Origin: an uncultured Lachnospiraceae bacterium
Lineage (GTDB): Bacteria; Bacillota; Clostridia; Lachnospirales; Lachnospiraceae
DNA length: 62,577 nt
Reading direction: 5' to 3'
NCBI GenBank assembly: GCA_902784165.1
Contig: CACZTL010000004.1
Location: 1 to 62,577 of the forward strand
Positions 2,766-62,577 of the stretch are shown here, in pieces. Position 1 is the first letter of the stretch. Each line of letters starts with the position of its first letter. The notes below the pieces were generated by a model. That model worked only from the letters and a program-made list of their open reading frames with translations. It was not told the DNA's origin and did no database searches. Made by a program: the position numbers and the translations under genes.

Positions 2766-2798
2766 GTGTATCAGCAGAACCATCCCTGTTGACACACT
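2766..2798 (-). repeat. type B short element (reverse orientation)
   Basis: The reverse complement AGTGTGTCAACAGGGATGGTTCTGCTGATACAC matches AGTGTGTCAA-N-GGGGACGGTTCT-N-CTGACACAC. Lies 1 nt from the rimO stop codon. Confidence 0.85.
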
Positions 2799-2799
2799 T

Positions 2800-4125
2800 T
2801 CAAGTAACAGCCTCTCCTAAAAGGTCATACTCCGTAGCTCCGGTTATCTTTGCCTTGATAAATGTCCCTGACACCAGGTCACGAGACATCATACCCGGCG
2901 CTACAAATACCTGTCCGTCAACATCCGGCGCATCCCTGTAGGAACGACAGACGTACACATCATCCTCAGGAAGATAGCCGTCAATAATAAGCTCCATGGT
3001 TTTCCCGGTAAATCGTTTTGAAACAGCAGACGATATTTTCTGCTGCAGCTCCATAATTTCATTACGCCTTGCTTTTATCAGTTCAGGATCAACCTTATGA
3101 GCAAAGCCTGCCGCAACAGTTCCCTCTTCTTCGGAATATTCAAATACTCCCAGCCGGTCAAACTCATTATATGAAACAAACTCTTTAAGCACCCCGTGAT
3201 CATACTCCGTCTCTCCGGGGAATCCGGAGATCAGTGTAGTTCTTATACAAATATCCGGTATCTCACGCTTAAGCTTATCAATAATCTTTTCTATACTCTT
3301 TTTGTCTGTTTTACGCCCCATCGCCTTAAGTATGGGATCTGACGCATGCTGCACCGGCATATCTATATAGTTAAGCAATTTAGGCTCATTTTTCATCAAG
3401 TAGATAAGGTCATCCGTAATCTCCTCGGGATAACAGTACAACAGCCTGATCCACTTAAGCTCCTGTATGGTAGCCAGCGCCTTGATAAGCTTTGTAAGAA
3501 GCTTTTTCTTACCCGGCATATCAACGCCGTACATAGTAACCTCCTGGGCAACAAGTATAAGCTCCTTTGCTCCGTTTGCAACAAGATCCTTCGCCCTTTC
3601 CATAAGGTAATCAAGAGGATAAGATCTGTAGGGTCCTCTCACCTTCGGTATGATGCAGTAAGTGCAGTTTTTGGAGCACCCTTCTGCAATCTTCAAGTAT
3701 TCATACCACCCGCCTGTAACACTTACCCTGTCAGCCTTAACTATCGGCATCCTTTCGGGCTTGTCCATGTAAATGTTTTCTTCACCCTCAAGCGCCTCAA
3801 GTATTTTATCAATAGACGTCGTTCCGATAATGACATCTATCTCCGGTATCTCCGTAAGGATCTCATCCTTATACCTTGTAGCCAGGCAACCGCATACAAT
3901 AAGCTTACGACAGACTCCTTCTTCTTTAAAACGCGCCATATCAAGTATAGCCTGAATACTCTCTTCCTTGGCGTCATGAATGAAGCAGCAGGTGTTTATG
4001 ATTATCGCCTCAGCCTGCTGTTCATCATTTGTCAGACTGTGACCGTTTTCCGTCAGAAGACCTATCATCTCCTCGGAATCGACTAAGTTTTTATCGCAGC
4101 CAAGCGATACGAACAATATCTTCAT
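2800..4125 (-). CDS. rimO: ribosomal protein uS12 methylthiotransferase RimO
   Basis: 441 aa. MTTase N-domain SLGCDKNLVDSE, radical-SAM CSKNCTYC, C-terminal TRAM-like segment. Confidence 0.88.
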   Translation of the reverse strand: MKILFVSLGCDKNLVDSEEMIGLLTENGHSLTNDEQQAEAIIINTCCFIHDAKEESIQAILDMARFKEEGVCRKLIVCGCLATRYKDEILTEIPEIDVIIGTTSIDKILEALEGEENIYMDKPERMPIVKADRVSVTGGWYEYLKIAEGCSKNCTYCIIPKVRGPYRSYPLDYLMERAKDLVANGAKELILVAQEVTMYGVDMPGKKKLLTKLIKALATIQELKWIRLLYCYPEEITDDLIYLMKNEPKLLNYIDMPVQHASDPILKAMGRKTDKKSIEKIIDKLKREIPDICIRTTLISGFPGETEYDHGVLKEFVSYNEFDRLGVFEYSEEEGTVAAGFAHKVDPELIKARRNEIMELQQKISSAVSKRFTGKTMELIIDGYLPEDDVYVCRSYRDAPDVDGQVFVAPGMMSRDLVSGTFIKAKITGATEYDLLGEAVT

Positions 4126-4177
4126 TAAGCATTTATCTCCGCAACTATAGATAATCCCGGCTTTTACACCAAAATCC

Positions 4178-5986
4178 TCAACTCAACACATCCTGTCTGC
4201 GCATCCACGCATCCGAATAAGCGTCACTTGGCATCAGAAATCCGCTGCGCGGCGAAAGTGAACACTTAAAAACCTTAGGTCCCACAGGCATACATGACCT
4301 CTTAAACTGATTATTAAAAAATCTTTTTATAAATATCTTAAGAGTTTCCTCTACAGTTTCCCGACTATAGTTTCCTTCAAACTTCCTGCAAGCGTATCCG
4401 GCGATTTGCTCAATACTCTCATACGTGCAGTAAAGCATATGATACAGGAAAAAATCATGCAGCGCATACGGACCGAGGCTGTCCTCCGTCTTTTGAATTA
4501 TTGTATCGTCTTTTCCGACCGGAAGCAGCTCAGGACTGACCGGGGTCTCTATTATATCTTCAATTATCTCAGAAATTAATTCCTTGTCAGCTCTGTCTGC
4601 AACACACGACACATATGTCCTGAGCACCGGCGCTATCACTGTTTTGGGGACTCCCGCATTTACACTGAAGTTCGACATATGATCGCCGTTATAAGTGCAC
4701 CACCCAAGCGCAAGCTCGGACATATCGCCCGTACCGATGACTATAGCATTTTCCTTGTTTGCGATATCCATAAGTATCATAGTCCTGGTACGAGCCTGAG
4801 CATTTTCAAATGTAATATCACTTTTAAATGTTTCAGTACCGTCTTCACCGGTTATTACCGGCTGTCCTATACTTCTCAGATGTGCACAAACCTGATCTTT
4901 TATATCAATCTCTGTAAGGGTAACACCGAAAGCTTTGGCCAGCCGATGTGCGTTTCCTTTGGTTTTTGCGCTCGTTCCGAAGCACGGCATAGTTACACAA
5001 AGGATATCCTTGCGGTCAAGTAAATATCTGTCAAATGCGTTTACTGCCGCCACAAGAGCAAGCGTGGAATCAAGCCCGCCGGAAAGTCCGAGCACTGCCT
5101 TTTTCATATGCAAAAACTTAAGCCTCTCTCCCAGAGCATATGCCTGAATCCTCATGATATCAAGGCATGCCTCGATAGACTTATCCTCGTCTGCCGGCAG
5201 AAACGAATAACTCTCGATGTAATTTATTTTCCTTCCCTTTAAGGGCTCTTCCGGATTATGATCAAAAATCCATATACCTTTTTTTGAAGTGCTGTCTGTG
5301 ACCTTGCCGCCCTGTATAACACATTTCAGACCGCAATATACACATTCATCCACTGACTCACCGGGACCTGATGATACACCGACTACACAGGTGTTATGCG
5401 ACTCTGATATTTCAGATAGCCGACTCAGATATTCGTCCCTGCATCCGGCATACATCTCGCCTGACCAAAGCAGAAAAACTAAATCGCTGTATTCGGAAAT
5501 CTTTCCATTTGCTCCCGCTAAAAAGTCATCATTTGATAAAGCGCCGGAAACGACTTTTGACGGCATGATAAATGCAGCATTTAACCCGCCTATCTCCATT
5601 TCACAGTCACTTGGCACAGCACTGAACTGCTCATCGCCTATCGTCAACGTCATGATCCTGCCCTGAGAAATAATCCGGTATATCTCTCCGTTGCCGATAA
5701 GCGCTATACATCCCTCATCATCTAAGGGAAATCCGACCGCCAGGAGCATATCCTTAAATTCCCGTGACGCCGCTTTTATCCTTGCCAGGGAATCTGTTAC
5801 GGACAGCCTTAAAGTCCCGGTTTTAAAAAGCGAGCCGCACGTACAGCCTGTAATCACAAATGGCGGAAAAACCGCTATATCACAGCCTTTCTTATACGCC
5901 TCTCCGGCTGATTCAATAATGGTACCGGCATTATAGTCACAGTCAGCCGTATGAATTTCGGGTGTTATTGCAGCAATCCTAATCAT
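4178..5986 (-). CDS. nadE: glutamine-dependent NAD+ synthetase
   Basis: 602 aa. N-terminal CN-hydrolase-like domain fused to an NAD synthetase domain with PP-loop SGGLDS. Confidence 0.85.
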   Translation of the reverse strand: MIRIAAITPEIHTADCDYNAGTIIESAGEAYKKGCDIAVFPPFVITGCTCGSLFKTGTLRLSVTDSLARIKAASREFKDMLLAVGFPLDDEGCIALIGNGEIYRIISQGRIMTLTIGDEQFSAVPSDCEMEIGGLNAAFIMPSKVVSGALSNDDFLAGANGKISEYSDLVFLLWSGEMYAGCRDEYLSRLSEISESHNTCVVGVSSGPGESVDECVYCGLKCVIQGGKVTDSTSKKGIWIFDHNPEEPLKGRKINYIESYSFLPADEDKSIEACLDIMRIQAYALGERLKFLHMKKAVLGLSGGLDSTLALVAAVNAFDRYLLDRKDILCVTMPCFGTSAKTKGNAHRLAKAFGVTLTEIDIKDQVCAHLRSIGQPVITGEDGTETFKSDITFENAQARTRTMILMDIANKENAIVIGTGDMSELALGWCTYNGDHMSNFSVNAGVPKTVIAPVLRTYVSCVADRADKELISEIIEDIIETPVSPELLPVGKDDTIIQKTEDSLGPYALHDFFLYHMLYCTYESIEQIAGYACRKFEGNYSRETVEETLKIFIKRFFNNQFKRSCMPVGPKVFKCSLSPRSGFLMPSDAYSDAWMRRQDVLS

Positions 5987-6006: not shown

Positions 6007-6076
6007 AGTGTGTCAGATGGGGACAGTCCCTTTGTGTCAGTTCTGACACAATGGGACTGTCCCCATCTGACACACC
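6007..6076. repeat. nested palindromic element, type A, full length
   Basis: AGTGTGTCAGATGGGGACAGTCCCTTTGTGTCAG-TT-CTGACACAATGGGACTGTCCCCATCTGACACAC. Lies between valS (stop 6086) and nadE (start 5986). Confidence 0.95.
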
Positions 6077-6085: not shown

Positions 6086-8719
6086 CTATCGGCAAGCGCC
6101 AAGCTCTCCCTCTACCTTAGCCAGCATCTGCCTGTATTTCTCCAGCTTATCCTTCTCCTCCTGTACCTTTGCGGGCGGAGCTTTAGATATGAATCTCTCG
6201 TTTGAAAGCATACCCTCGCAGCGCTTAACCTCAGCCTCAAGCCTTTCCTTCTCCGCAGTAAGCTTCCTTTTTTCTTCCTCACGGTCAACGAGTCCCTCTA
6301 TAGGCACATAAACAGCTGCATTTTCTATAACAACCGAGAGGGCATCCTCAGGCACTTCCGATTTATCCCGTAATATCTTAAGATCCTCAGCCTTGGCAAG
6401 AAGCTTGAAAATATTGCTGCCCTTTTCAAAACAATTTTGAGCTTCGTCAGTATCCGCAACTATTATTACATTTACCTTTTTGCCGGGCGCTATATCCTTT
6501 TCCGATCTTATATTTCTTACTGCCTTAACAGCTGACTTAAGTACCTCTGTTTCATGCTCCTCTGTCGGAAAATCATATACTTCATTAAACTCCGGCCATT
6601 TTGATATAACGATAGACTCTTCATCTGACTGAAGCGAGCAGAATATCTCCTCAGTTACAAAAGGCATAAACGGATGAAGGAGCTTAAGCAATGTGATCTG
6701 GGCAGTTTTAAGAGTCCATACCGCAGCTTCCTTTGTCGCGTCATTCTCATCGTAAAGACGTGACTTAACCATCTCCACATACCAGTCGCAGAACTCATCC
6801 CATGCATATCCGGATATCTTGTCATAGGCAATACCGAGTTCATATTTTTCAAGGTTCTCGGTTACCTCTCTTACAAGCCTGTTTAAGCCGGAGAGCAGCC
6901 ATTTGTCAGTATCGGTAAGATTACCGGGAATCTCTTTTCCGGCCTTGATCCTACCATCAGGATCGTTCATCATTATAAATCTAGCCGAATTCCACATCTT
7001 GTTGGCAAAATTTCTCGCCGCTTCTACACGAGAAATGTAAAATCTCATGTCATTTCCGGGCGATGTGTTAGAAATCAGAGACGCTCTGAGAGCATCCGCC
7101 CCGTATTTCTCAATTATATCCAGCGGATCTATTCCGTTTCCGAGAGACTTGCTCATCTTTCTTCCTTCGGAATCCCTTACAAGACCATGGAATAAAACGT
7201 CCTTAAAAGGTTTTTTACCCATATGTTCAAAGCCGGAGAACATCATCCTTATAACCCAGAAGAAAAGGATATCATAGCCTGTTACCAAAACATCTGTCGG
7301 ATAGAATTTCTCAAGCTCCTTTGTATCATCAGGCCAACCGAGAGTAGAAAAAGGCCAGAGGGCCGAGGAGAACCAGGTATCCAGAGTATCCTCATCCTGC
7401 CGTAGCTTACCGCCGCACTTAGGGCATTTCTCCCCGTCTCTTTCAAAGACAAAAACATCGTTACATGCATCACAGTAATATGCCGGTATCCTGTGTCCCC
7501 ACCAGAGCTGTCTTGATATACACCAGTCCTTGATATTATCGGTCCAGTGATAAAAGGTCTTGTCCATGCTTGAAGGAACGAGTCTTATATCACCTGTCTT
7601 TACCGCTTCTATCGCAGGCTTTATAAGCTCTTCCATCTTTACAAACCACTGAGGCTTTATCATTGGCTCTACGGTTGTATGACACCTGTCATGCGTCCCT
7701 ACGTTATGTTTATGATCCTCGATCTTTATAAGAAGACCCAGCTCGTCAAGATCCTCAACTATAAGCTTTCTTGCAGCGTAACGGTCAAGTCCGGAATACT
7801 TGCCGTAACCGTCGGCTATAGTCGCATCATCATTTAAAATATTAATCTGCTCCAAATCGTGGCGCTCTCCAACCGCAAAATCATTCGGGTCGTGAGCCGG
7901 CGTAATCTTTACGACACCGGTTCCGAATTCAGGATCCACATACTCATCAGCGATAACAGGTATCTCTCTGTCTGTAAGAGGAAGCTTAACTGTTTTTCCT
8001 ATAATGTCCTTGTAGCGTTCATCATCCGGATGAACAGCTACCGCCGTATCTCCGAGCATAGTTTCGGGTCTTGTCGTAGCAAGGCATACAAATCTTCCCT
8101 CTTCTCCGACGACCGGGTACTTAAGGTGCCAAAACTTACCCTCCTGCTCCTCGTACTCTACCTCGGCATCCGATATGGAGGTCTTACATACAGGACACCA
8201 GTTTATAAGGCGCGCCCCTTTGTAAATGAGACCTTTGTCGTACATATTTACAAATGCTTTGGTTACGGCTCTGCTTAAGCCTTCATCCATAGTGAAGCGC
8301 TCTCTGCTCCAGTCACATGAGGAACCTATTTTTTTAAGCTGCGAAATGATCGTCCCGCCGTACTCTTCCTTCCACTCCCATGTACGTTTAAGGAAAGCTT
8401 CACGCCCGATTTCCTTTTTGTCCTTGCCCTCTTTTCTGAGAGCTTCCGTAACCTTTACTTCCGTAGATATACTTGCGTGGTCTGTTCCCGGCACCCAGAG
8501 AGCTTCATATCCCGTCATCCTCTTAAATCTGATCAGGATGTCCTGCATGGTATTATCAAGCGCATGACCCATATGCAGCTTGCCCGTGATATTGGGCGGC
8601 GGCATAACTATAGTAAAGGGCTTCTTGTCGCTGTCCGCAGAAGCCCTGAAATAACCGTTATCTGTCCATTTTTTATATAATCTTTCCTCGATATCGGAGG
8701 GAGAATATTTTTTTTCCAA
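6086..8719 (-). CDS. valS: valine--tRNA ligase
   Basis: 877 aa. Class I motifs PNITGKLHMGHA (HIGH) and RKMSKSLGN (KMSKS), plus a C-terminal coiled coil. TTG start 9 nt after GAGG. Confidence 0.97.
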   Translation of the reverse strand: MEKKYSPSDIEERLYKKWTDNGYFRASADSDKKPFTIVMPPPNITGKLHMGHALDNTMQDILIRFKRMTGYEALWVPGTDHASISTEVKVTEALRKEGKDKKEIGREAFLKRTWEWKEEYGGTIISQLKKIGSSCDWSRERFTMDEGLSRAVTKAFVNMYDKGLIYKGARLINWCPVCKTSISDAEVEYEEQEGKFWHLKYPVVGEEGRFVCLATTRPETMLGDTAVAVHPDDERYKDIIGKTVKLPLTDREIPVIADEYVDPEFGTGVVKITPAHDPNDFAVGERHDLEQINILNDDATIADGYGKYSGLDRYAARKLIVEDLDELGLLIKIEDHKHNVGTHDRCHTTVEPMIKPQWFVKMEELIKPAIEAVKTGDIRLVPSSMDKTFYHWTDNIKDWCISRQLWWGHRIPAYYCDACNDVFVFERDGEKCPKCGGKLRQDEDTLDTWFSSALWPFSTLGWPDDTKELEKFYPTDVLVTGYDILFFWVIRMMFSGFEHMGKKPFKDVLFHGLVRDSEGRKMSKSLGNGIDPLDIIEKYGADALRASLISNTSPGNDMRFYISRVEAARNFANKMWNSARFIMMNDPDGRIKAGKEIPGNLTDTDKWLLSGLNRLVREVTENLEKYELGIAYDKISGYAWDEFCDWYVEMVKSRLYDENDATKEAAVWTLKTAQITLLKLLHPFMPFVTEEIFCSLQSDEESIVISKWPEFNEVYDFPTEEHETEVLKSAVKAVRNIRSEKDIAPGKKVNVIIVADTDEAQNCFEKGSNIFKLLAKAEDLKILRDKSEVPEDALSVVIENAAVYVPIEGLVDREEEKRKLTAEKERLEAEVKRCEGMLSNERFISKAPPAKVQEEKDKLEKYRQMLAKVEGELGACR

Positions 8720-8753: not shown

Positions 8754-8823
8754 AGTGTGTCAGCCGGGGACAGTCCCTTTGTGTCAGTAATGACACAAAG
8801 GGACTGTCCCCGGCTGACACACT
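8754..8823. repeat. nested palindromic element, type A, full length
   Basis: Same consensus with spacers CC/GG. Lies 5 nt downstream of the CarD-like stop and 34 nt upstream of the valS start. Confidence 0.95.
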
Positions 8824-8828: not shown

Positions 8829-9323
8829 TTATTTAACCGACAGAAATGAATCCATCTCCTCACTGACTTCCGTGACTTCTCTGTCAAGTGCTACTGCCAT
8901 TTCACCGTATAATAGCTTTCTTGCCACAGACAGAACCCTGCTGTCGGCAGATTTCATTTTCCTTAAATCTTTAGCCCTTTCGTTTTTGATATTATACAGA
9001 AATCTTATGAGATGAAGCAGGACAAGAGAATCCTGTGATTTAATACATTCATCATACTGACCGGCAGGAATCCTTTCATTCAGAGTTTTATCATCCTTGC
9101 ACTTTTTTGCCTTACTGCGCAACTTGTCACATTCTTTTTTTGATATTATTTCCCTCATGGGAACCTTATTGTCAACAGGTGTATATATCAGTCCTCTGTT
9201 ATCAAAAAAGGGCTGTAAAAAATAATAATCACCGGAAATCCCTTTAATCGGCGGTGTTGCAATATCCGATACGGTACATACACCAACTACTCCGTAAACC
9301 ACCTTGTCATCGACAGCAAACAT
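8829..9323 (-). CDS. CarD/CdnL-family transcriptional regulator-like protein
   Basis: ORF 8829..9392 trimmed to ATG 9323 behind GAAAGGAG; the removed codons read through a repeat copy. N-terminal FAVDDKVVYGVVGVCTVSDI resembles the CarD/TRCF RNAP-interaction domain. Confidence 0.72.
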   Translation of the reverse strand: MFAVDDKVVYGVVGVCTVSDIATPPIKGISGDYYFLQPFFDNRGLIYTPVDNKVPMREIISKKECDKLRSKAKKCKDDKTLNERIPAGQYDECIKSQDSLVLLHLIRFLYNIKNERAKDLRKMKSADSRVLSVARKLLYGEMAVALDREVTEVSEEMDSFLSVK

Positions 9324-9361
9324 ACTTCTTCTCCTTTCTGATATATTTAAAAGTGCGTGTA

Positions 9362-9427
9362 AGTGTGTCAATGGGAACGGTTCTACTGACACGCTGACAC
9401 AATGGTACTGTCACCATCTGACACACT
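9362..9427. repeat. composite copy: type B unit fused to a degenerate type A right arm
   Basis: AGTGTGTCAATGGGAACGGTTCTACTGACAC followed by GCTGACACAATGGTACTGTCACCATCTGACACACT. Lies in the 5' leader of the CarD-like gene. Confidence 0.85.
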
Positions 9428-11397: not shown

Positions 11398-11467
11398 AGT
11401 GTGTCAAACGGGGACAGTCCCTTTGTGTCAGAACTGACACAAAGGGACTGTCCCCATCTGACACACT
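11398..11467. repeat. nested palindromic element, type A, full length
   Basis: Lies between the rpsT terminator and the pepD start. The left end reads TGTCAA (TTGACA on the minus strand). Confidence 0.95.
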
Positions 11468-11981: not shown

Positions 11982-11993
11982 AGTGTGTCAGAT
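11982..11993. repeat. solo terminal fragment of the element
   Basis: AGTGTGTCAGAT, 1 nt from the clpX stop codon. Confidence 0.55.
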
Positions 11994-16446: not shown

Positions 16447-18054
16447 TCAACCGCCGAGGTACGCATCAATAACCTTCTTACAAGCGGTCGTTGCTTTAGT
16501 ATAATCTATCTCTGTCTTCTCCATAACGCAAACAACTGCGATTTTGGGATCGTTGTACGGCGCAAAGCAGGTAAACCACATATGCGCCGTATCAAGATCA
16601 CTCTCATACTCGGCAGTACCCGTCTTTCCCGCAACACGGTACGGGTTGCTGCCGTATACATCCGAAAGTCCTTCATTTACCATGTTATACATCATCTTGC
16701 CAAGCTCTGAGCTTTCTGATTCAGTTGCTATCGAGTTTCTGTATACTGTAGGTACAAAATTCTTCACAAGATCGCCATCGGGTGAAAGCACCTTTTCAAC
16801 CATGTAAGGCTTCATCAAGGTACCGCCGTTTGCAATGGTCGATGTTATAAGTAGTGTCTGAAGAGGTGTCGTAAGAGTACTTCCCTGTCCGTATGAAGCT
16901 GCCTGCACATCACTCATATCGGAATTGCCGTCAAGTCTGAATATACTCTTTGTTGTCGCTACCTCATCAAGAGGTGAGTCCTGGTTGTATCCGAAATTCT
17001 CCGCAAGAGTTCTGAAAGCATTCCTGTCAAGTCTCAGACCGATGGTGGAAAATGCCACGTTACATGAAACGACAAAGGCTGTATTAATATTCTCATCACC
17101 GTGAGCATACTGGCAGTTAACTCTTGCACCGCCTGCCGGCTGAACTGTTCCCGAGCAGTGGAAAAACGCATCGTGGAACTCTTCCGGCTCTTCCTTAAGG
17201 TATTCAAGTGCCGTTACGATCTTGAATGTGGATCCCGGCGGATAAAGACCCTGCGTAGCCCTGTTTAAAAGAACAGAATCATCCCCGTCAAGCTGCGCCC
17301 ATTCGTCATAATCAGTAGCACCCTTATTAGGATCATAAGTCGGCTTTGACACCATGGCAAGCACTTTACCTGTAGACGGTTCTATCGCTATGATAGCTCC
17401 TTTCTCATCGCCGAGGGCATCAAAAGCGACCTGCTGTAGATAAGGTCTTAATGTCGTATAGACGTTATCGCCCTGAAACTCGGTTTTTTCTATGTCCGAA
17501 GCTTCGGCATCAACTACTATATTATTAGTAGGCGTATTAAGATCCTCATAGAAGCTTCCTTCTATACCGCTTCCGCCGCCACGTTCCATTCCTACGGGAA
17601 CTGCAAAAAGCTCTCCCTTAGGGTAAGACCTGTACTCCTCACCGTCAGCATCAAGATAAGTAGCAGCAAGAACAGAGCCGTCCTGTGCAAATATAGTTCC
17701 TCTTCTTACGGGATTAGGAGGCTCTGTCGTAGTAACCCTGGGGTTGTAAGGACTCGTAGCAATATCCGGAGCCACCTTTGCATTGAAATGCGCAAAATAA
17801 ATAATCATCGTAACGAATATACCGACGAATATCAACGCTATTACGTTAGTTTCTACATTACGCCTTTTCTTGCGAAGGATTCCGGTTCCCGCATCCGTCC
17901 TGGTTCTGTAAGGATCTTCCCGATCCGCGCTTCCTTTGCTCCCTTTCTTTACGCCGTCACCATCGCCCTCAAAACCCTCAAAGTGAAAATCATCGGCAGA
18001 AAATTCTTCTTCACCCTGATTTTTTATTTTTTTCTCTTTATCTTTTCTGTCCAT
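16447..18054 (-). CDS. mrdA: class B penicillin-binding protein (PBP2-type transpeptidase)
   Basis: 535 aa. Charged N-terminal tail plus TM anchor; transpeptidase motifs STFK, SCN, KTGT. Confidence 0.85.
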   Translation of the reverse strand: MDRKDKEKKIKNQGEEEFSADDFHFEGFEGDGDGVKKGSKGSADREDPYRTRTDAGTGILRKKRRNVETNVIALIFVGIFVTMIIYFAHFNAKVAPDIATSPYNPRVTTTEPPNPVRRGTIFAQDGSVLAATYLDADGEEYRSYPKGELFAVPVGMERGGGSGIEGSFYEDLNTPTNNIVVDAEASDIEKTEFQGDNVYTTLRPYLQQVAFDALGDEKGAIIAIEPSTGKVLAMVSKPTYDPNKGATDYDEWAQLDGDDSVLLNRATQGLYPPGSTFKIVTALEYLKEEPEEFHDAFFHCSGTVQPAGGARVNCQYAHGDENINTAFVVSCNVAFSTIGLRLDRNAFRTLAENFGYNQDSPLDEVATTKSIFRLDGNSDMSDVQAASYGQGSTLTTPLQTLLITSTIANGGTLMKPYMVEKVLSPDGDLVKNFVPTVYRNSIATESESSELGKMMYNMVNEGLSDVYGSNPYRVAGKTGTAEYESDLDTAHMWFTCFAPYNDPKIAVVCVMEKTEIDYTKATTACKKVIDAYLGG

Positions 18055-18114: not shown

Positions 18115-19407
18115 TTATTCCTTACGCATAGTATACATACCGTTGATGAGTGCAAACATAATAAGCGAGCTGATAAGCGAGCTTCCGCCGTAGCTGATAA
18201 ACGGAAGTGATACACCGGTAAGAGGTATAAGCTTAATAGAACCTCCTATCGTAAGGAACACCTGAATACCGTATGTGGCACCGAGTCCTACCGCTACAAG
18301 TCTGTAGAAAAGTGTGTTGCATCTTGAAGCAATATTCATCATAAGTATGAGATTGTTAAGACATATGAGAATTATACATATAGCTACTATGGCGCCCATT
18401 TCCTCTGTAATGGATGATATCATAAAATCCTTTTCCACATAAGGAATAAGCTTAGGACTGCCCTTTCCGAGCCCTGTTCCGAGCCACCCACCGGCAGATA
18501 TCGCAAACAAAGAACGAAGGATATGCCATCCGGAATTTTGCGGATCTGACCAGGGATCCCGCCATGCGCTGATTCGTCTGGCCACATGTGAAAACGCTTT
18601 ATTTGCAAGAAACGCGCCTAATATACCTGCTCCTACACCCCCGGCAAGAAGATAAACCTTCCTTGAAGCAACATACAACATAGAAAGATATGCCACAAAG
18701 AATATAAGCGCAGTTCCCAAGTCTCTTGAAACTATTAACAGCAAAACATGTGCAGCCGCTATTCCCGACACTATTAGTATGGTCTTCCAGTTGGTGATCT
18801 TATTAAACATCGAGGCTATAAACAGCACGAACAGTATCTTTACAAACTCACCCGGAAGAAGCTGGAAATCACCTATATTAATCGAAAGGACAGCGCCGTT
18901 ATATGACTCTCCCAACACAAATACAGCAGCCAGCAGCGCAAATCCCACGATCGCAAATATCCATCCCCAGTTTCTGATCTGTCTTATATTTTTAAGAAGA
19001 GCAGGGATAAAGAATGTAATTACGGTTCCTATGCAGCCTAGCACAAACTGCCTCAAGCACTCGTCGTAATTGATTCTTCCTATCATAAGGAAGCCTATGG
19101 CTTCCAAAAGAACCATGTTATTTACAAGGAGTCGCGAAGCCTTCGGATAGGCGATGTCATAAACAACAATAGTGGCAAACAAAAGCGCAAACTCACAGAT
19201 ATACAAAATAATGTATTTCATGTCATTTGCATTCATATACAGGACTATGTAGCCTATAAGATGCAAAACAAATGTCATGACATTTTGCACGGCGTAAACG
19301 CTTTTTAAGCCTCTTGAATCCGATGTAGTGGATCCGACATAGGTGATAAGTGTGTATATACACATAACACCTATAAAGATATACTTGGCTATATCAGCAA
19401 AATCCAT
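18115..19407 (-). CDS. rodA: SEDS-family peptidoglycan glycosyltransferase (FtsW/RodA/SpoVE)
   Basis: 430 aa polytopic membrane protein immediately upstream of the class B PBP. Confidence 0.82.
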   Translation of the reverse strand: MDFADIAKYIFIGVMCIYTLITYVGSTTSDSRGLKSVYAVQNVMTFVLHLIGYIVLYMNANDMKYIILYICEFALLFATIVVYDIAYPKASRLLVNNMVLLEAIGFLMIGRINYDECLRQFVLGCIGTVITFFIPALLKNIRQIRNWGWIFAIVGFALLAAVFVLGESYNGAVLSINIGDFQLLPGEFVKILFVLFIASMFNKITNWKTILIVSGIAAAHVLLLIVSRDLGTALIFFVAYLSMLYVASRKVYLLAGGVGAGILGAFLANKAFSHVARRISAWRDPWSDPQNSGWHILRSLFAISAGGWLGTGLGKGSPKLIPYVEKDFMISSITEEMGAIVAICIILICLNNLILMMNIASRCNTLFYRLVAVGLGATYGIQVFLTIGGSIKLIPLTGVSLPFISYGGSSLISSLIMFALINGMYTMRKE

Positions 19408-19428: not shown

Positions 19429-22005
19429 TTATAAAACCCCGGTATAAAAACCGGCGCTGTAGCTGTTCCCCTCTTGCTTATATCTTCCCTCACCAAAACG
19501 CTTAAGTAACTTACGTGTTTCTTTTGCATCCTCATCTGTCAGGTCGATACGAAACCTGTAAATGCCCGTGCTGCCTTTGATATCCTCTGTCAGACTGACC
19601 GGTGTATGGTCATAAATAACATTATTACAATATCTGCAATCCGGATAAGCAATGTACTCATTGCCTTTCTCATCGGAAAACTCAAAAGGCTTGTCGTCCC
19701 TCGTGCAGCACCCTGTCGTTTTTCTTACACAGTGTTCACTAAGCATAAGTACCATTCGTCCGTATCCTACAGCCTCAGTCTTTTCAGTCAGACCTATCTT
19801 ACTGATCTCATCGCTTTTAAGCTCAACCGGAGCCGTAAAAAGCTCATGATAAAACCCAAGGCTCCGGGTCAGACCCGCTAAAAACTCAGCGGCTCTGCTG
19901 TTATAAGCATACACCTGATAGTCAGAAACTATACTGTATTTTTTCCCGGTACCGCTGCTGCTGACAAAAAATGACAACGCACACAGTTCATCGGCGCTCC
20001 TGACTAAAAATCCGTCCGGATCAAGTTTTAAGGCAAGTTTTATATCCTCTTTAAAAAGCTTTATATGTCGCTCCCTGAAAAAATGCGGGAGCGTGACAAA
20101 AAGCTCATTGCCGCTATCTTTCAGTTTATTGAGAAGCGCTGTGTCATTTAAAACCTTCCTTAAAACACGCGTTGAAACATATATTCTTGACAGTACTGTC
20201 CCGCACTCAAGCACGGCTTTTAGCTGCTCGGATGTATTTACTGACGCGGAAAAAGCAAGCCTTTCGGGCACACTCCCGCTTATTATATCATTTTTTTCAT
20301 TAATAGCAAACAAAAAATTGCTTTTCACACTTTTTTTGTTGTTTTTATGCTTGCTCAATATTTCTTCAGTAAGCTTTAAAATCCCTTTTCGCCTGAGGTC
20401 ATTGACCCCCCCGTTAGATATAAATATCCCGTCATCAGCTTCTACAGTCACTTCTGAGCATGAAAAGTCGGTTCCGCCGAGCTTGCACAGCCTTTTTTTC
20501 AGATCCTCTTTTGTTACTCCGGCATTTTTTGCTTTCTGTACGGTTTCTCCTCTAACCTCTACCTGCGCTCCGCTTTCCGGGTGTAGTATTTTAAGTATCG
20601 CAGGCTTATCCTTTTTGACCGTAAGCTTCATCTTAATATTTATCCGGGAAAACCTCACCTTTAGTGTGTCAGAGCGGGGACAGTCCCTTTGTGTCAGTCC
20701 TGACACAAAGGGACTGTCCCCATCCTGACACACTGAGTCAACAAAGCTTGCGCGGATATATTCCTGCAAAGCGCTGTCATTCATACGGTACAGGATATCA
20801 TTTTTTCTTATTCCGTACTTGGACGGCAGGTTTATCTCAAACACCCCGCCTTTCTTTACAGCCTTGCCGCTTGTGAATGAATTGCCGGTAGTTATTTCAA
20901 ACACATCCCCCGGATTTATATCCTCAAGCGTCCGAAACCTGATATGACCTTTACGGTTTTCTTCAACTTTCAGCGCAGCAACTCCCCTGTTATTCGGACG
21001 ATCAAGAGACATAAGAGAAATCCCCTTTCTTCCGGTAAACATCCCTTCGCTAAATGATCCTCTGTTATAAAGCGCTGCAAGCTTTCTTTTGTCACGCTCA
21101 AGCTCTTCAGGATCAGCTTTAATCATACCATCGTAAAGTCTGTCCAAATATTTTCTGTAAATGTGGGTTACTCCCGCAGCATAATAAACATTTTTCATCC
21201 TTCCTTCTATTTTAAAGGATCTGACTCCTGCCGCCGCAATCTTAGGCAAGAGAGAAAGAGCCGCGATATCCCTTGTGCATAAAAGCCTGTTCTTATTCTT
21301 TCCGTCGTCAAACATAAGCCTGCATGGCTGTGCGCAGCTGCCGCGGTTGCCGCTTCTTTGCCCGTGCATAGACGAAAAAAGACACTGACCGGAATAAGAA
21401 TAACAAAGAGCCCCATGAACAAAAGCCTCCAGCTCTATCCCTGTATGATCATAAATACTTCTTATTTCTTCAAGTGTCATCTCTCGCGGAAGAACAACCC
21501 TGGAAACTCCGATCTCTTTCAGCTTGGCTGCAAAAAATCGAGTCATCACAGCCATCTGTGTGCTTGCATGAATATTAAGCTCAGGTATTTTCTCGCGAAT
21601 CAGACTCAAGCAGCCGTAGTCCTGTACTATAACGGCATCCAGCCCGGCGCTGTACAATTCCTTAAGAAAAGGTATTATCTTACCAATCTCTTCTTCTTTA
21701 AGTAATGTATTTACCGTCAAATAAATATTAGCGCCCCGCAGATGAGCGTAATCCAGCGCCTGAATTATCTCTTCAATGCTCAGATTACCTGCATACGCGC
21801 GTGCGCTAAAACTTTTTCCTCCGAGATAAACAGCATCTGCTCCGGCATTTATCACTGCTTTACAGATATCAAGACTGCCTGCCGGCGCAAGAAGCTCAAG
21901 CGTTCTCTTTTTGGCTGATGCTGCTGTTTCCGTTTCGGTTATTTTCATATTGTTTTTGTTTATTAACTTGTTTATCGAATTCTTTTTCTTTGTTGTCATA
22001 GGCAC
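19429..22005 (-). CDS. U32-family peptidase, long form, carrying an in-frame repeat insertion
   Basis: 858 aa. U32 signature EAFVHGALCYSYSGQCLFSS in the N-terminal half. Residues about 424-447 (SVCQDGDSPFVSGLTQRDCPRSDTL) are encoded by repeat copy 20663..20734. Start is GTG 22005 or ATG 21999 behind AAGGA. Confidence 0.85.
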   Translation of the reverse strand: MPMTTKKKNSINKLINKNNMKITETETAASAKKRTLELLAPAGSLDICKAVINAGADAVYLGGKSFSARAYAGNLSIEEIIQALDYAHLRGANIYLTVNTLLKEEEIGKIIPFLKELYSAGLDAVIVQDYGCLSLIREKIPELNIHASTQMAVMTRFFAAKLKEIGVSRVVLPREMTLEEIRSIYDHTGIELEAFVHGALCYSYSGQCLFSSMHGQRSGNRGSCAQPCRLMFDDGKNKNRLLCTRDIAALSLLPKIAAAGVRSFKIEGRMKNVYYAAGVTHIYRKYLDRLYDGMIKADPEELERDKRKLAALYNRGSFSEGMFTGRKGISLMSLDRPNNRGVAALKVEENRKGHIRFRTLEDINPGDVFEITTGNSFTSGKAVKKGGVFEINLPSKYGIRKNDILYRMNDSALQEYIRASFVDSVCQDGDSPFVSGLTQRDCPRSDTLKVRFSRINIKMKLTVKKDKPAILKILHPESGAQVEVRGETVQKAKNAGVTKEDLKKRLCKLGGTDFSCSEVTVEADDGIFISNGGVNDLRRKGILKLTEEILSKHKNNKKSVKSNFLFAINEKNDIISGSVPERLAFSASVNTSEQLKAVLECGTVLSRIYVSTRVLRKVLNDTALLNKLKDSGNELFVTLPHFFRERHIKLFKEDIKLALKLDPDGFLVRSADELCALSFFVSSSGTGKKYSIVSDYQVYAYNSRAAEFLAGLTRSLGFYHELFTAPVELKSDEISKIGLTEKTEAVGYGRMVLMLSEHCVRKTTGCCTRDDKPFEFSDEKGNEYIAYPDCRYCNNVIYDHTPVSLTEDIKGSTGIYRFRIDLTDEDAKETRKLLKRFGEGRYKQEGNSYSAGFYTGVL
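20663..20734. repeat. nested palindromic element, type A, full length, inside the U32 peptidase CDS
   Basis: AGTGTGTCAGAGCGGGGACAGTCCCTTTGTGTCAGTCCTGACACAAAGGGACTGTCCCCATCCTGACACACT. It is 72 bp (24 codons) and is read without a stop in the gene frame. Confidence 0.95.
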
Positions 22006-26285: not shown

Positions 26286-26355
26286 AGTGTGTCAGACGGG
26301 GACAGTCCCTTTGTGTCAGGTCTGACACAAAGGGACTGTCCCCGTCTGACACACT
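26286..26355. repeat. nested palindromic element, type A, full length
   Basis: Perfect arms with spacers AC/GT. Lies 18 nt downstream of the cysteine desulfurase stop and upstream of thiI. Confidence 0.95.
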
Positions 26356-30827: not shown

Positions 30828-30832
30828 TTTTC

Positions 30833-37898: not shown

Positions 37899-37900
37899 AG

Positions 37901-38288
37901 TGGAGTAGACGAGAATCGAACTCGTGTCCGGAAAACGCTCCGTACGGTCTTCTACTATCATAGTTGATCATTTGCTCAAAGCTGTTTAAACCACATTCCG
38001 GGAATCAACGCCGGCACATGGCCGAGCCCTGTAATATCGCCCGCCGGCCACAAGACATCACCGTCGGGAGTACCCCGCAAAATATAAGACCCGGACTCCG
38101 ATCCTGCGGGCAAACCGGACCGGACCGCCGTTTATAGAAGAAACGGCCTTTGGTTGCTGCTTAACCTAAATTAGGCAGCAAGCGCTAAATCATAATCGTC
38201 TTCAGCGTTTAATTTAAAAGAACGTTTAACGCACGCCTGCGGATAGCTTCTCCGTCTTTACATTCCCCGTCGAAACCTTTACTACCCC
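37901..38288 (-). ncRNA. ssrA: tmRNA (ssrA)
   Basis: The 5' GGGGTAG pairs with 3' CTACTCC, including the G3:U alanine identity pair. T-arm ACGAGTTCGATTCTCGT. Internal tag frame GCT GAA GAC GAT TAT GAT TTA GCG CTT GCT GCC TAA = AEDDYDLALAA. CCA is not encoded. Confidence 0.93.
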
Positions 38289-38290
38289 AT

Positions 38291-38318
38291 GTGTGTGTCA
38301 GTCCCCATCTGACACACT
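38291..38318. repeat. minimal derivative (terminal modules only)
   Basis: GTGTGTGTCAG-TCCCCAT-CTGACACACT. Lies between the guaB stop (38343) and the tmRNA 5' end (38288). Confidence 0.85.
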
Positions 38319-40911: not shown

Positions 40912-40940
40912 TAATTACCATTCAGCCATTAGTGTGTCAA
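40912..40940 (-). promoter_or_regulatory. promoter whose -35 lies inside a repeat copy (TTGACA-17-TGgTAATTA)
   Basis: The -35 at 40935..40940 is the terminal module of element 40931..40965. The extended -10 is at 40912..40920. It would drive gene 40317..40859. Confidence 0.5.
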
Positions 40941-40965
40941 ACAGGGACAGTCCCTTTGACACACT
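40931..40965. repeat. short derivative: terminal modules plus a single GGGACAGTCCC core
   Basis: AGTGTGTCAAACAGGGACAGTCCCTTTGACACACT, upstream of gene 40317..40859. Confidence 0.9.
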
Positions 40966-48181: not shown

Positions 48182-48922
48182 TTACTTCCCCTTTGAAACC
48201 GGAAACAAACCCTTTTCCTTAAGAACAAGCAGCGCCCGATACGCGCATTCCTGCTGGGCGTCTTTTTTGGTATGTCCCGAAGCACTCACATCAAAATATC
48301 CTTCACAAACCGCCCTTACAGAAAAGATCCTGTTATGAGCCGGTCCTTTCTCATCTGTATCCTTATACTCAACCATATACCCGTAAGCCTGCATACACTC
48401 CTGAAGAGCTGTTTTCGAGTCGGAAAACAAGGTGATATGGTCTATATCTTTAAAAATATGATCATCGATAAACTTCAGTGCGCTGTCAAGACCGCCGTCA
48501 AGGAAAACAGCGCCTATAACTGCTTCGAACGCATCGGATATTATAGACGGACGCTTCCGCCCTCCCGTACATTCCTCTCCGCGCCCCAGAAGAATGAACT
48601 TCTGGAAATTGATCTTTTTGGCGCACAGATTCAGTGTTTTCTCGCAGACTATACTGGCTCTTAACTTAGACATCTCGCCTTCCCGCATATCCGGATAAGT
48701 TAAAAATATATATCTGCTCGTAGCAAGCTCTAATACCGCATCACCTAAAAACTCCAGTCTCTCATTATTAAGATCTTTTCTGTTTTTAGTATCGGTTCTT
48801 CTCTCTTCATTAGCAAAGGAGCTGTGTGAAAGAGCGCGCAAAAGAAGCTGCGGATCACTAAACTTATACCCGGACAGCTCTTGAAACTCTTCTATAGTTT
48901 TTTTAACGCTTTTTTTGGCCAT
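48182..48922 (-). CDS. rnc: ribonuclease III
   Basis: 246 aa. Signature ERLEFLGDAV and a C-terminal dsRBD. Confidence 0.95.
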   Translation of the reverse strand: MAKKSVKKTIEEFQELSGYKFSDPQLLLRALSHSSFANEERRTDTKNRKDLNNERLEFLGDAVLELATSRYIFLTYPDMREGEMSKLRASIVCEKTLNLCAKKINFQKFILLGRGEECTGGRKRPSIISDAFEAVIGAVFLDGGLDSALKFIDDHIFKDIDHITLFSDSKTALQECMQAYGYMVEYKDTDEKGPAHNRIFSVRAVCEGYFDVSASGHTKKDAQQECAYRALLVLKEKGLFPVSKGK

Positions 48923-52408: not shown

Positions 52409-52437
52409 AGTGTATCAAAGGGTCGTTAGTGTGTCAA
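52409..52437 (-). promoter_or_regulatory. possible hisF promoter built from repeat termini (TTGACA-17-TACACT)
   Basis: The -35 at 52432..52437 is inside the type B copy. The -10 at 52409..52414 is inside the adjacent solo end fragment. Confidence 0.4.
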
Positions 52438-52461
52438 AGGGGACGGTTCTGCTGACACACT
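52428..52461 (+). repeat. type B short element
   Basis: AGTGTGTCAAAGGGGACGGTTCTGCTGACACACT, 11 nt from the mtaB stop. A solo left-end fragment AGTGTATCAAAGGG lies at 52409..52422. Confidence 0.9.
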
Positions 52462-53869: not shown

Positions 53870-53938
53870 AGTGTGTCAGAACGGGGACAGTCCCTTTGTG
53901 TCAACGTGACACAAAGGGACTGTCCCCGTTCTGACACT
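53870..53938. repeat. nested palindromic element, type A, full length (2-nt terminal deletion)
   Basis: Spacers AAC/GTT and loop ACG. Lies between the trpB2 terminator and the mtaB start. Confidence 0.93.
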
Positions 53939-53948
53939 ATAACCGGGC

Positions 53949-55624: not shown

Positions 55625-55789
55625 CTAAGCTCGGAAAACCTTATTATATTAAAGTCTATATTGAAAAAAACAAAAACATATAAACTGATATTTTTCATAC
55701 AAAGCTCTGCTTTTGTAGTAAAATATAACCAAGAAAAAATTCAAATTAATTTTGGTATCTGCTTTAAACCAAAAAAGGAGGAAACTGTC

Positions 55790-56176
55790 ATGATACGCAA
55801 GATAATAAATATAGATCAGGAAAAATGTGAAGGGTGCGGCACCTGCATTACCGAATGCAACAAAGGCGCCATACAAATTGTTGAAGGTAAAGCTACTCTG
55901 ATAAATGCCAACGTTTGCGACTCCTTAGGCTCGTGTATACCTAAGTGTCCTATGTATGCCATAAGCTTCGCAGAGTGCGATGTTGTCGAGTTTGATAAAG
56001 ACAAAGCAATAAATGAGATGCTGAGGAAGATGCTTGTCGACACTCCTCCGGCCTTTCCTCCCTCTGCATTTTCCGGTATGGGCAGTCACTGTCCTTGCAT
56101 GGACTTCAGTAAATCGAGAAAGTCATCCGGTGGTATTGAGGAGGAGGAATTTGTCGCCGACGCAGTAACAGCCTGA
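55790..56176 (+). CDS. 4Fe-4S dicluster (ferredoxin-type) domain protein
   Basis: ATG 55790 behind AAGGAGG. Cluster motifs CEGCGTCITEC and CDSLGSCIPKCP. This is the only plus-strand gene in the window. Confidence 0.75.
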   Translation: MIRKIINIDQEKCEGCGTCITECNKGAIQIVEGKATLINANVCDSLGSCIPKCPMYAISFAECDVVEFDKDKAINEMLRKMLVDTPPAFPPSAFSGMGSHCPCMDFSKSRKSSGGIEEEEFVADAVTA

Positions 56177-56239: not shown

Positions 56240-56272
56240 AGTATGTCAACGGGAACTGTTCTACTGACACAC
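56240..56272 (+). repeat. type B short element
   Basis: AGTATGTCAACGGGAACTGTTCTACTGACACAC, between the ferredoxin gene and tRNA-Gly. Confidence 0.85.
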
Positions 56273-56293
56273 AACCGTCTTTGAAATAAAAAA

Positions 56294-56366
<73 letters not shown>

Positions 56367-60624: not shown

Positions 60625-60754
60625 ATATTTCACCTCTACTTATATTTTTCGCTTATTCAAGGATTCTTAACAAACACTTTCCTCAAAGGGCATTTTTGTT
60701 ATTAGGCCATAATATGAACATTATACCTGTTACAAAACCCTTTAACAAGCATTA

Positions 60755-62467
60755 TTATATTTTACAGCAATCAACCTCAAGCACTGCGCCTCTGTTTCCT
60801 GATGTAACCATAGAAGCATAACGCGCAAGATACCCTGTAGTAATAACCGGCGCCTTCGGCATCCAGTTCTTTCTTCTCTCCTCCATCTCTTCATCGGAAA
60901 CATCAAGCGTAATAGTGAAATTAGGTATATCGATCTTAATGATATCTCCTTCATGCACAAGCGCGATAGGCCCTCCAACCGCTGCCTCCGGTGATACATG
61001 ACCGATAGATGCGCCACGGCTGGCACCGGAAAACCTTCCGTCCGTAATAAGCGCTACCGTTGAACCGAGCCCCATGCCTGCTATAGCTGATGTAGGATTT
61101 AACATCTCTCGCATACCCGGTCCGCCTTTAGGCCCTTCATACCTGATAACAACCACATCACCCGGATTGATTTTACCACCCTTTATAGCCGCTATGGCAT
61201 CCTCCTCACACTCAAAAACCCTCGCAGGACCCTCGTGCACCATCATCTCATCCACAACAGCCGATCTCTTTACCACGCTTCCGTCCGGAGCAAGATTGCC
61301 CGAAAGAACCGCAAGACCTCCGGTCTTACTGTAAGGATCATCAAACGGCCTGATTATTTCCTCATCCTTGTTGACAGAATCTGCTATATTTTCACCGATG
61401 GTATTTCCTGTAACCGTCATACATTCCGTATGTATAAGATCGTGATCGGCGAGCTGCTTCATAACCGCATATACGCCGCCTGCCTCCTGAAGGTCTTCCA
61501 TATATGCCGGACCTGCCGGGGCGAGATGACAGAGGTTCGGAGTTTTTTCGCTTATCTCATTAGCGAATTTTATATCAAAATCAAAGCCGATCTCATGAGC
61601 TATCGCCGGCAAATGTAACATACTGTTTGTAGAACAGCCGAGAGCCATATCCACCGTAAGTGCATTAAGTATCGCTTCCTTTGTCATGATATCCCGAGGT
61701 CTTATATTCTTCCTTATAAGCTCCATAACCTGCATACCTGCATGCTTTGCAAGCTTAATCCTTTCGGAATAAACAGCGGGAATAGTACCGTTACCTTTAA
61801 GTCCCATTCCGAGTGCCTCTGTCAGGCAGTTCATGGAATTTGCTGTATACATGCCGGAGCATGATCCGCAGGTGGGACAGGCATGGTTCTCATAATCAAG
61901 AACATCCTCCTCAGTCATGGTTCCGGCTGCATTGGCACCTACTGCCTCAAACATGGATGAAAGGCTTCTCTTTTGCCTCTTCACGCGTCCGGCAAGCATG
62001 GGGCCTCCGCTGACAAATACCGTAGGCACATTTACCCTCGCTGCCGCCATAAGAAGTCCCGGAACATTCTTATCACAATTAGGTATCATTACAAGACCGT
62101 CGAACTGGTGGGCGATAGCCATAGCCTCGGTAGAATCGGCTATCAAATCTCTTGTTACAAGCGAATACTTCATTCCGACGTGTCCCATCGCTATTCCGTC
62201 ACACACTGCGATTGCCGGAAATACAAGAGGCGTTCCGCCGGCTGCTGCAACACCCATCTTTACGGCATCCGCTATCTTATCAAGATTCATATGACCCGGA
62301 ACAACTTCATTGTACGAGCTTACTATCCCGATGATAGGGCGGGACATCTCTTCTCTCGTAAGACCGAGCGCATTAAGAAGCGAACGCTGAGGAGCGTGCT
62401 CAACGCCTGCCGTTATCTGGTCGCTTTTCAAATTTTTCTTGTCCGGAAATAAATTTTCTTTTCCCAT
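60755..62467 (-). CDS. ilvD: dihydroxy-acid dehydratase
   Basis: ATG 62467 behind AGGTGA. IlvD/Edd blocks CDKNVPG and [10 protein letters not shown]. Confidence 0.95.
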
Positions 62468-62509
62468 ATATATCACCTGCTGTATCTGATAAATAAAAAC
62501 TACCGTTTT

Positions 62510-62577
62510 AGTGTGTCAGATGGGGACAGTCCCTTTGTGTCAGTGCTGACACAAAGGGACTGTCCCCATTTGACACA
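62510..62577. repeat. nested palindromic element, type A, cut by the window edge
   Basis: AGTGTGTCAGATGGGGACAGTCCCTTTGTGTCAGTGCTGACACAAAGGGACTGTCCCCATTTGACACA, upstream of ilvD. Confidence 0.9.

Follow-up and report, generated by a model that had tools for sequence, protein, structure and literature searches.

A dense family of nested palindromes, probably of the REP/REPIN type, in a contig of an uncultured Lachnospiraceae bacterium

Among the described systems closest to the repeats considered here are the repetitive extragenic palindromic (REP) and REPIN sequences with their REP-associated tyrosine transposases (RAYTs), as represented by the REP/BIME elements of Escherichia coli with TnpA-REP and by the REPINs of Pseudomonas. 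Only RAYT groups 2 and 3 have been tied to highly abundant flanking 16-mers, and Group 1, which has low-abundance flanks, is the only one noted in Clostridia (Bertels et al. 2017, PMC5581495). TIRtrons contain RAYT-like genes (TIRYT) located between inverted repeats that share the sequence GGGGWSAS; some of these flanking repeats are genome-wide families arranged as dimers, and the families, found mainly in Proteobacteria and Acidobacteria, were characterized as 'moderately abundant' (Di Nocera et al. 2013, PMC3733652). TIRYT was later equated with TnpA-REP subclass 2.1, which has a C-terminal helix-turn-helix (HTH) domain (Bac_DnaA_C, HTH_23 or HTH_28) and near whose genes no REP-like sequences were found (Quentin et al. 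2018, PMC6006769). In the present work, a family of nested palindromes was analyzed in a 62,577-nt stretch (hereafter, the window) of contig CACZTL010000004.1 (assembly GCA_902784165.1) of an uncultured Lachnospiraceae bacterium, and compared with these systems.

The window contains one repeat family with 18 copies or remnants, approximately 1 per 3.5 kb, which is far above chance. The core sequence GGGGACAGTCCC (with no more than one mismatch) was observed 17 times versus 0.06 expected, and the box GTGTCAG 41 times versus 3.5 expected. The catalogue of copies was based on reading each coordinate listed in a first-pass annotation of the same DNA and on searches with two profiles, one built from 14 arms and the other from six copies of the subfamily designated type B. 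It includes eight type A copies of 70–72 nt (one of them truncated by the window end), one composite copy, three centrally deleted copies, five type B copies of 33–34 nt, and one end fragment; together, the repeats occupy roughly 840 of the approximately 5,700 intergenic bases. A full type A copy consists of two inverted 34-nt arms separated by a 2–4-nt loop and folds into a 35–36-bp hairpin on either strand, with a calculated energy of about −70 kcal/mol as RNA and z from −13 to −16. The first-pass annotation had proposed a real dispersed family of nested palindromes, its consensus and a list of copies; the enrichment, the coordinate reading and the profile searches bear out the first and reproduce the last, and the consensus is correct.

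The family shares with REP/REPIN-RAYT systems short and dense extragenic palindromes, inverted pairs that form a long hairpin (the putative unit), covarying arms, the absence of target duplication, a position behind coding regions and between co-directional genes, with occasional in-frame copies, and, in related contigs, a low-copy HUH/Y1 gene between inverted repeats whose product has its nearest fold in structure 4ER8. The likely explanation is a family of the REP/REPIN type, in which non-autonomous hairpin elements of DNA would be disseminated in trans by a RAYT-like HUH/Y1 enzyme that is encoded on the chromosome and has an extra, putatively HTH, C-terminal tail. The first-pass annotation had found no resemblance to any named repeat, which does not hold for the kind of family: the RAYT partner, the missing target duplication, the covarying arms and the post-stop placement are REP/REPIN traits, and REP/REPIN-like families with a RAYT-type partner are a known kind. 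In the literature searched, the family itself seems to be undescribed, as do its Clostridial host, its density and its in-frame copies. No paper carrying the repeat sequence was found when open-access literature was searched for the core strings, and a search for 'miniature inverted-repeat' together with Lachnospiraceae gave nothing useful. As the first-pass annotation had suggested checking, the repeats were also compared with Rfam at gathering and permissive thresholds: no family reached the threshold for them, and only generic miRNA-precursor hairpins appeared, far below it. The Clostridiales-1 RNA family matched one copy with 25.8 bits versus the 48 needed and no other copy. The only Rfam matches at the gathering threshold in the window were tmRNA, 6S RNA and one tRNA.

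The type B copies form a distinct subfamily, whose core is not palindromic and has the consensus GGGGACGGTTCT; the exact 12-mer is present in the 52428 copy alone. Pairwise likeness in the window is 91.5% for type A arms and 81% for type B copies, and the greater divergence of type B points to its greater age. The simplest reading of these sequences is that type B would be the ancestral cognate hairpin of the transposase clade described below and type A a younger REPIN-like derivative, in which the core has turned into the palindrome GGGGACAGTCCC.

Direct comparison of the arm spacers, which are 3–4 nt long, occur in seven versions and represent the sole variable part of the arm, showed that in 10 of 16 copies the two arms share the same spacer, versus 1.8 expected. 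A match of 10 was reached in none of 20,000 shuffles, and the 3-nt and 4-nt length variants are mirrored too. Such mirroring of length differences points either to copying of one arm from the other or to replication of the entire unit. Replication of whole units has been reported in one account of REPINs (PMC3116915). A form of about 118 nt with outer inverted repeats was found at 32392–32514 and, as the same long form, at an unrelated locus in contig L094, and forms of 86–92 nt with an extra apical mini-palindrome were found at other loci; these variants show a modular, BIME-like make-up. Two further ideas about the family were rejected. Integron attC-like or Xer sites had no matching motifs in the main family, as judged by eye, and an asymmetry of G·U versus A·C pairs on the coding strand, considered as a sign of RNA-level selection, was not significant (6 versus 2 by hand count).

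Neither a transposase nor a Y1 gene is present in the window, in agreement with the first-pass annotation and with scans of the window proteins, and the other fetched loci, apart from the Y1 contigs described here, likewise contain no Y1 gene. The partner gene was reached by a search for element-encoded peptides, which returned four small spurious open reading frames (ORFs; P0121–P0124); one of them, P0124, is located on contig L097 directly after a Y1 gene, and a homologue search from this gene led to contigs L098/L099. The first-pass annotation had proposed looking for a RAYT gene bounded by the same termini, and it is in these related contigs that such a RAYT-type gene, flanked by these same repeats, was found. 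The L097 gene encodes a protein of 247 aa with a Pfam Y1_Tnp match of 50 bits (cut-off 23); its HUH motif is HVHLL and its tyrosine motif RYILNNPKKAGI. Its flanks contain a 36-nt copy and an extra box 78 nt upstream, and an arm cluster and an 86-nt copy 10 nt downstream. The arms beside the gene correspond to the window consensus, and three more copy clusters are present on the same 6.2-kb contig. The L098/L099 homologue is 73% identical and has the same flanking repeats and the same neighbouring gene; the Y1 genes of all these contigs (247–249 aa) have type A-core copies on both sides.

The Y1 protein family is large, with 988 relatives at E ≤ 1e-10, one of which is annotated as 'REP element-mobilizing transposase RayT'. 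Most of them lie on contigs of 1–3 kb, as expected if assemblies break at the flanking repeats. In 21 homologues the HUH and RY..NP tyrosine motifs are invariant and the C-terminal segment is conserved; HTH matches in them are all below threshold (HTH_23 in five, HTH_28 in one and HTH_ParB in seven). The AlphaFold model (pLDDT 85) contains a confident helical domain at residues 186–246. The best fold match of the model is 4ER8, the E. coli TnpA-REP protein bound to a REP hairpin (TM 0.76 on target), which ranks above the IS608 and ISDra2 transposases.

Homologues with approximately 50% identity were identified in Butyrivibrio sp. VCB2001, in a high-GC organism (L102–L105), in L106 and in L107, with inverted hairpins on both flanks; Y1 loci with type B-core flanks are L100, L102–L105, L106 and L107. 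These hairpins have the structure GTCAA-n-GGGGACGGTTCT-n-TTTGAC, are located 45–130 nt upstream of the gene and 0–2 nt past its stop codon, and their core is that of the window type B consensus. Within the 12–20 kb read, the type B-core hairpins of these genomes occur only beside the Y1 gene. On either side of the L107 Y1 gene (GCA_024712465.1), the type B hairpins are paired as inverted doublets, which represent true REPIN-like units; the doublets are at 5890–5960 and 6742–6815, and a third is in the next spacer (about 7517–7570). In L102–L105, there is a partial tandem duplication of the Y1 5' end with the upstream hairpin, and two Y1 homologues adjoin large TIR_2-domain genes (L102:4873–7557; L106:6730–9216).

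The absence of target-site duplication and the Y1 partner also bear on the idea of a classical miniature inverted-repeat transposable element (MITE), in which an internally deleted insertion sequence (IS) of the DDE type would have left two joined 34-nt terminal inverted repeats, moved by the transposase of the parent IS. Such an origin would suit the two long, nearly perfect inverted arms and the repetition of GTGTCAG boxes within each arm, which recalls the multiple transposase-binding sites at IS21- or Tn7-like ends; in addition, IS21-like and IS1182-like genes are present on contig L003. However, the best flanking direct repeats are 0–4 nt long (6 nt in one case), with the same distribution as at 2,000 random positions, so no fixed-length duplication is discernible, a result that agrees with HUH/Y1 chemistry and speaks against a MITE of the DDE type. 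The only transposase-sized insert seen between arms is the Y1 gene, no DDE transposase bounded by arms was found in 1.45 Mb of loci, and type B singlets are hairpins rather than inverted-repeat pairs. The IS elements of L003 were rejected as parents because their ends are unrelated. We therefore regard a classical MITE as very improbable. The MITE-like repeats of Firmicutes (BOX, RUP and SPRITE of pneumococcus, bcr1 of Bacillus cereus, EFAR of enterococci) are, like the present family, small, dispersed, structured intergenic repeats of Gram-positive bacteria, and are co-transcribed there; those with known mobilisation are of the inverted-repeat/DDE type with target duplications, whereas the family in the window has no duplication, no sequence similarity to them, and a Y1 partner.

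The comparison with the closest systems also revealed differences from the REP/REPIN pattern. The conserved recognition-like sequence is situated in the loop or core (GGGGAC[G/A]GT..) and not at the foot of the stem. The transposase is about 80 residues longer, with a putative HTH tail, and the family occurs in a gut or rumen bacterium of the Clostridia (Lachnospiraceae-like). Compared with TIRtrons, the type A core GGGGACAG fits GGGG[AT][CG]A[CG], whereas the type B core GGGGACGG departs from GGGGWSAS at position 7; the Y1 proteins, like TIRYT, have a C-terminal extension, here with sub-threshold HTH matches; and, unlike in TIRtrons, true hairpins make up the flanks and copies occur at very high density (~1 per 3.5 kb). 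Judged by sequence, the family fits the TIRtron/TIRYT description better than that of classical REPs, and it would also fit the HTH-bearing subclass 2.1.

Several observations weigh against assignment to the REP/REPIN type with the Y1 enzyme as partner. The GTAG tag (or CGTC) of classical REPs is missing: GTAG spans the left junction in a minority of copies only (e.g., 6007, 32416 and 37716), and the bases outside the element vary. The type A arm has its box, core and box in direct order and forms no hairpin alone, unlike a REP within a REPIN. The best NCBIfam match of the L097 protein, 'REP-associated tyrosine transposase' (REP_Tyr_transpos), scored 62 bits, below the cut-off of 80, and sequence-only searches of the PDB with the Y1 protein gave matches that were too weak. 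The GC content of the Y1 contigs is 45–47% versus 43% in the window, and their tetranucleotide correlation with it is 0.80–0.85 versus 0.97–0.99 for confirmed same-species contigs; the Y1 contigs are probably from a sister species, and linkage of the enzyme to this genome is inferred. Finally, no fresh insertion or presence/absence polymorphism was seen among strains ~98% identical.

Regarding placement, 17 of the 18 copies in the window are intergenic, and 10 of them start no more than 25 nt past the stop codon of the upstream gene. The protein genes of the window are on the minus strand and have housekeeping functions (RecA, valyl-tRNA synthetase (ValRS), NadE, ClpX, FtsW, ThiI, SMC, FtsY, RNase III, PlsX, GuaB, IlvBD and others). 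Of 14 copies lying wholly in a spacer, 13 leave at least 20 nt to the next start codon, enough for a ribosome-binding site; the exception is a remnant that abuts the 5' end of tmRNA. If the copies are disregarded, spacers of approximately 30–50 nt remain. On the transcribed (minus) strand, reading of the flanks showed A-rich or mixed sequence 3' of the hairpins and no U-tract, with T-runs on the wrong side, and intrinsic terminators were ruled out on this ground.

Full type A copies of 70 nt are located at 6007–6076, 9 nt past the ValRS stop and 20 nt ahead of the NadE start, and at 8754–8823, 5 nt past the stop of ORF 8829–9392 and 34 nt ahead of the ValRS start. Another full copy, at 11398–11467, corresponds to a 35-nt centrally deleted copy at the orthologous site in strain L088, and that at 26286–26355, in the spacer between the IscS-like and ThiI genes, has lost its left half in strain L089. 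The full copy at 32416–32485 is enclosed in the outer inverted repeat GAGTTACTATTCAGCGATAATT of the ~118-nt form (32392–32514) and lies upstream of the 6S RNA gene. The full copy at 53870–53939 has a degenerate right terminus, and the last one (62510–62577), 33 nt ahead of the IlvD start, is truncated by the window end. The composite copy (9362–9427, plus strand) consists of a type B hairpin (9362–9395) joined to a type A right arm (9394–9427).

Type B copies are present at 2766–2798 (33 nt, minus strand), with a 9-bp stem AGTGTGTCA/TGATACAC and the loop core GGGATGGTTCT, 1 nt past the stop of a RimO/MiaB-like gene; at 27575–27608 (34 nt, plus strand), identical in strains L088 and L089; at 30795–30828 (34 nt, minus strand), 4 nt past a stop codon; at 52428–52461 (plus strand), where the exact core GGGGACGGTTCT is the one that flanks Y1 transposase genes elsewhere; and at 56240–56273 (plus strand), 20 nt downstream of a tRNA gene (56294–56366, minus strand). 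The degraded forms comprise a centrally deleted copy of 47 nt within a 66-nt palindrome downstream of tmRNA (37716–37762), a short remnant with two terminal boxes and part of the core 3 nt from the predicted tmRNA 5' end (38292–38318), a centrally deleted copy of 35 nt with the order box-core-box' (40931–40965), preceded by the outer-arm motif TTACCATTCAGCCATT, and the terminal-box fragment AGTGTGTCAGA (11982–11992, plus strand), 2 nt past the ClpX stop. The tmRNA gene (37898–38288, minus strand) thus has a degenerate copy on each side (37716–38318). The 6S RNA gene (32556–32737) is encoded on the plus strand, unlike all the protein genes; apart from it, the plus strand has a single candidate, a ferredoxin-like ORF at 55661–56176.

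The remaining type A copy (20663–20734, 72 nt) is an in-frame insertion of 24 codons, read as SVCQDGDSPFVSGLTQRDCPRSDT, in a U32 peptidase/DUF3656 gene (ORF 19429–22005, minus strand). The first-pass annotation, which placed almost all copies in short co-directional spacers, was right for 17 of the 18 and overlooked the in-frame position of this one. Orthologues with up to 59% identity have no insert, an orthologue with 92% identity carries a shorter version, and strains L088 and L089 have at the same site a 36-nt type-B-like element, also in frame. Around this copy (window 20645–20760 versus L088:9095–9180), the strains are about 96% alike versus 98–99% elsewhere, with different element types at one site. 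The divergence and the exchange of elements suggest that this stretch is a tract of local recombination or conversion. In mnmE of a Lachnospiraceae metagenome-assembled genome (MAG), a single 34-nt arm is also inserted in frame, and alignment with the MnmE structure 3GEH shows a 16-residue gap at this position. Stop codons are present in only one of the three frames of the element, two being open. In this behaviour, and in it alone, the family is similar to the Rickettsia palindromic elements (RPEs), palindromes that can be read in frame within functional protein genes, whose products they extend by a peptide segment. RPEs appear unrelated in sequence, occur in an unrelated host and are longer (about 100–150 bp), and in-frame copies are exceptional in the window (1 of 18). 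To our knowledge, no transposase partner of RPEs has been identified.

The family extends beyond this locus, as the first-pass annotation had expected. Copies were found at unlinked loci in more contigs of the same or a sister species, and Lachnospira and Lachnospiraceae MAGs carry near-identical copies at sites that are not homologous; the contig of the window was itself found again in metagenomes of the European Nucleotide Archive (ENA). A scan of a genome collection with a 21-mer gave at least six MAG contigs. Among the matches listed, full type A copies are present in Lachnospira sp. UBA4346 and in one of two rumen Lachnospiraceae MAGs, the other of which has the single in-frame arm in mnmE, and Syntrophomonas, Alkaliphilus and Clostridiales MAGs contain related architectures. 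No match was obtained in a scan of viral contigs or in BLAST searches of plasmids and phages. As a negative control, 80 ValRS loci of other Clostridia (~1.1 Mb) contained no copies; with ValRS identity of about 65%, these loci are too distant to define empty sites.

In strains L088 and L089, which are ~98% identical to the window, every site is occupied and the copies are the main points of difference: a 35-nt copy has arisen by central deletion, the left half of one copy is lost, and the 72-nt type A copy of the U32 gene is replaced by the 36-nt type-B-like element. No copy is present in the fully syntenic sister genus L095/L096, in which U32 is 57% identical and the IscS–ThiI spacer is 32 nt versus 120 nt in the window. 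The empty sites in the sister genus and the filled sites in all the strains imply insertion after the genus split and before the strains diverged. For the mobility that the first-pass annotation had proposed to check in related strains, the outcome is mixed: the sister genus has empty spacers, and the close strains show no presence/absence polymorphism. The long palindromes appear to decay by internal deletion, although some differences could be assembly collapse, since N-gaps fall inside copies.

These gaps (L088:3555–3564 and L090:4208–4210) raise the question of an assembly artefact, in which the palindromes would be fold-back chimeras or collapsed products of metagenome assemblers, and some of the strain 'deletions' could indeed be collapses. 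However, the copies are interior to a 62.6-kb contig, between intact genes; the same copies occupy the same sites in independent samples and assemblies (L007, L088 and L089); MAGs and JGI contigs of independent origin contain the family as well; and one copy preserves a reading frame. An artefactual origin is therefore hardly credible.

The operon context and the conservation of sites were also considered from the standpoint of host selection, according to which the repeats would be cis elements, namely RNase III sites, 3'-exonuclease barriers setting mRNA stability in operons, or protein-binding sites, spread by recombination or gene conversion. The copies do lie inside operons, 1–25 nt past stop codons; their RNA hairpins would be very stable; RNase III is encoded in the window (48182–48922, minus strand); spacer covariation preserves stem pairing; all sites are kept between strains; and type A in one strain with type-B-like elements in others at one site resembles conversion. 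The same operons in the syntenic sister genus, however, contain no copies, copies decay by deletion between close strains, and in-frame copies are present inside two unrelated proteins. Moreover, the same repeats flank a transposase gene, and the transcribed strand shows no U-tract 3' of the hairpins. Host selection is compatible with secondary exaptation and leaves the origin unexplained, and as the primary explanation it seems unlikely.

In the REP/REPIN-type mechanism that we favor, type B, with its GTGTCA stem and GGGGACGGTTCT loop, would be the ancestral hairpin recognised by the transposase clade. Type A would be a lineage-specific younger derivative, in which two facing 34-nt arms form a 70-nt hairpin; like a REPIN, this hairpin may act as the functional unit. 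If the enzyme behaves as TnpA-REP and IS200/IS605 do, it would recognise the folded hairpin on single-stranded DNA, and would cut and rejoin it without duplicating the target. Copies would persist where they are harmless, that is, just past stop codons in operon spacers and, rarely, in frame in tolerant protein loops. They are probably co-transcribed as very stable RNA hairpins and could then be plausible RNase III or exonuclease-barrier sites, the host-encoded RNase III being the enzyme expected to cut them; this would be a side effect and not the reason for their existence. The long palindromes would subsequently decay through internal deletion.

Three groups of related or neighbouring repeats were noted in other contigs. 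In a Syntrophomonas MAG (L002:2600–6300), there are seven copies of a 23-nt palindrome, CACAAGGGGACAGTCCCCTTGTG, which has a 20-mer core in common with type A. These palindromes are 550–800 nt apart, with one close inverted pair, mostly in one orientation, and are situated between small genes (HicA/HicB, Uma2-like and three Rpn-like paralogues), so that the region resembles a gene-cassette array; a group II intron domain match is located at 2372–2447. In Alkaliphilus and Clostridiales MAGs (L004:2700–2790 and L006:4745–4835), the region between the L10 leader (an Rfam match) and the rplJ ribosome-binding site contains a palindrome of about 90 nt that is related and has its modules in the same order. 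Three spacers of the same gene cluster in L095, from a bovine metagenome, contain instead a repeat of about 120 nt (TGTCATTCCGAACGGATGTGAGGAATC...CTCGGAATGACA) unrelated to the present family (17102–17283, 18724–18909 and 20407–20770).

A broader and more tentative proposal, which we hold with somewhat less than even confidence, is that this is the first dense, evolving REPIN-RAYT-type population documented in Clostridia (Lachnospiraceae-like bacteria of gut or rumen), driven by an HTH-bearing RAYT clade whose cognate hairpin has the signature GGGGACGGTTCT in its loop. Its burst would have followed the conversion of the core into a palindrome, and the 20-mer in Syntrophomonas and Alkaliphilus would mark a Clostridia-wide superfamily. 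The arms would be kept identical by hairpin-templated correction, as seems to be the case because even length changes are mirrored. If this is true, most hosts (e.g., Butyrivibrio and L106) have the hairpin only beside the gene, and this lineage has burst to an extrapolated several hundred copies.

Studies of REPIN-RAYT systems, which treat them as long-lived and vertically inherited 'replicators within genomes', have dealt almost exclusively with Proteobacteria. In Clostridia, the same enzyme clade is seen in a 'silent' state, with hairpins beside the gene only, and in a 'burst' state of about one copy per 3.5 kb, which offers a natural comparison for what triggers proliferation. On the practical side, the palindromes appear to break metagenome assemblies, in which contigs end in them and N-gaps lie inside them, and they can be mis-called as small ORFs (P0121–P0124). 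For the bacteria themselves, the palindromes add peptide segments to proteins and may shape the processing of operon mRNA in abundant gut or rumen anaerobes.

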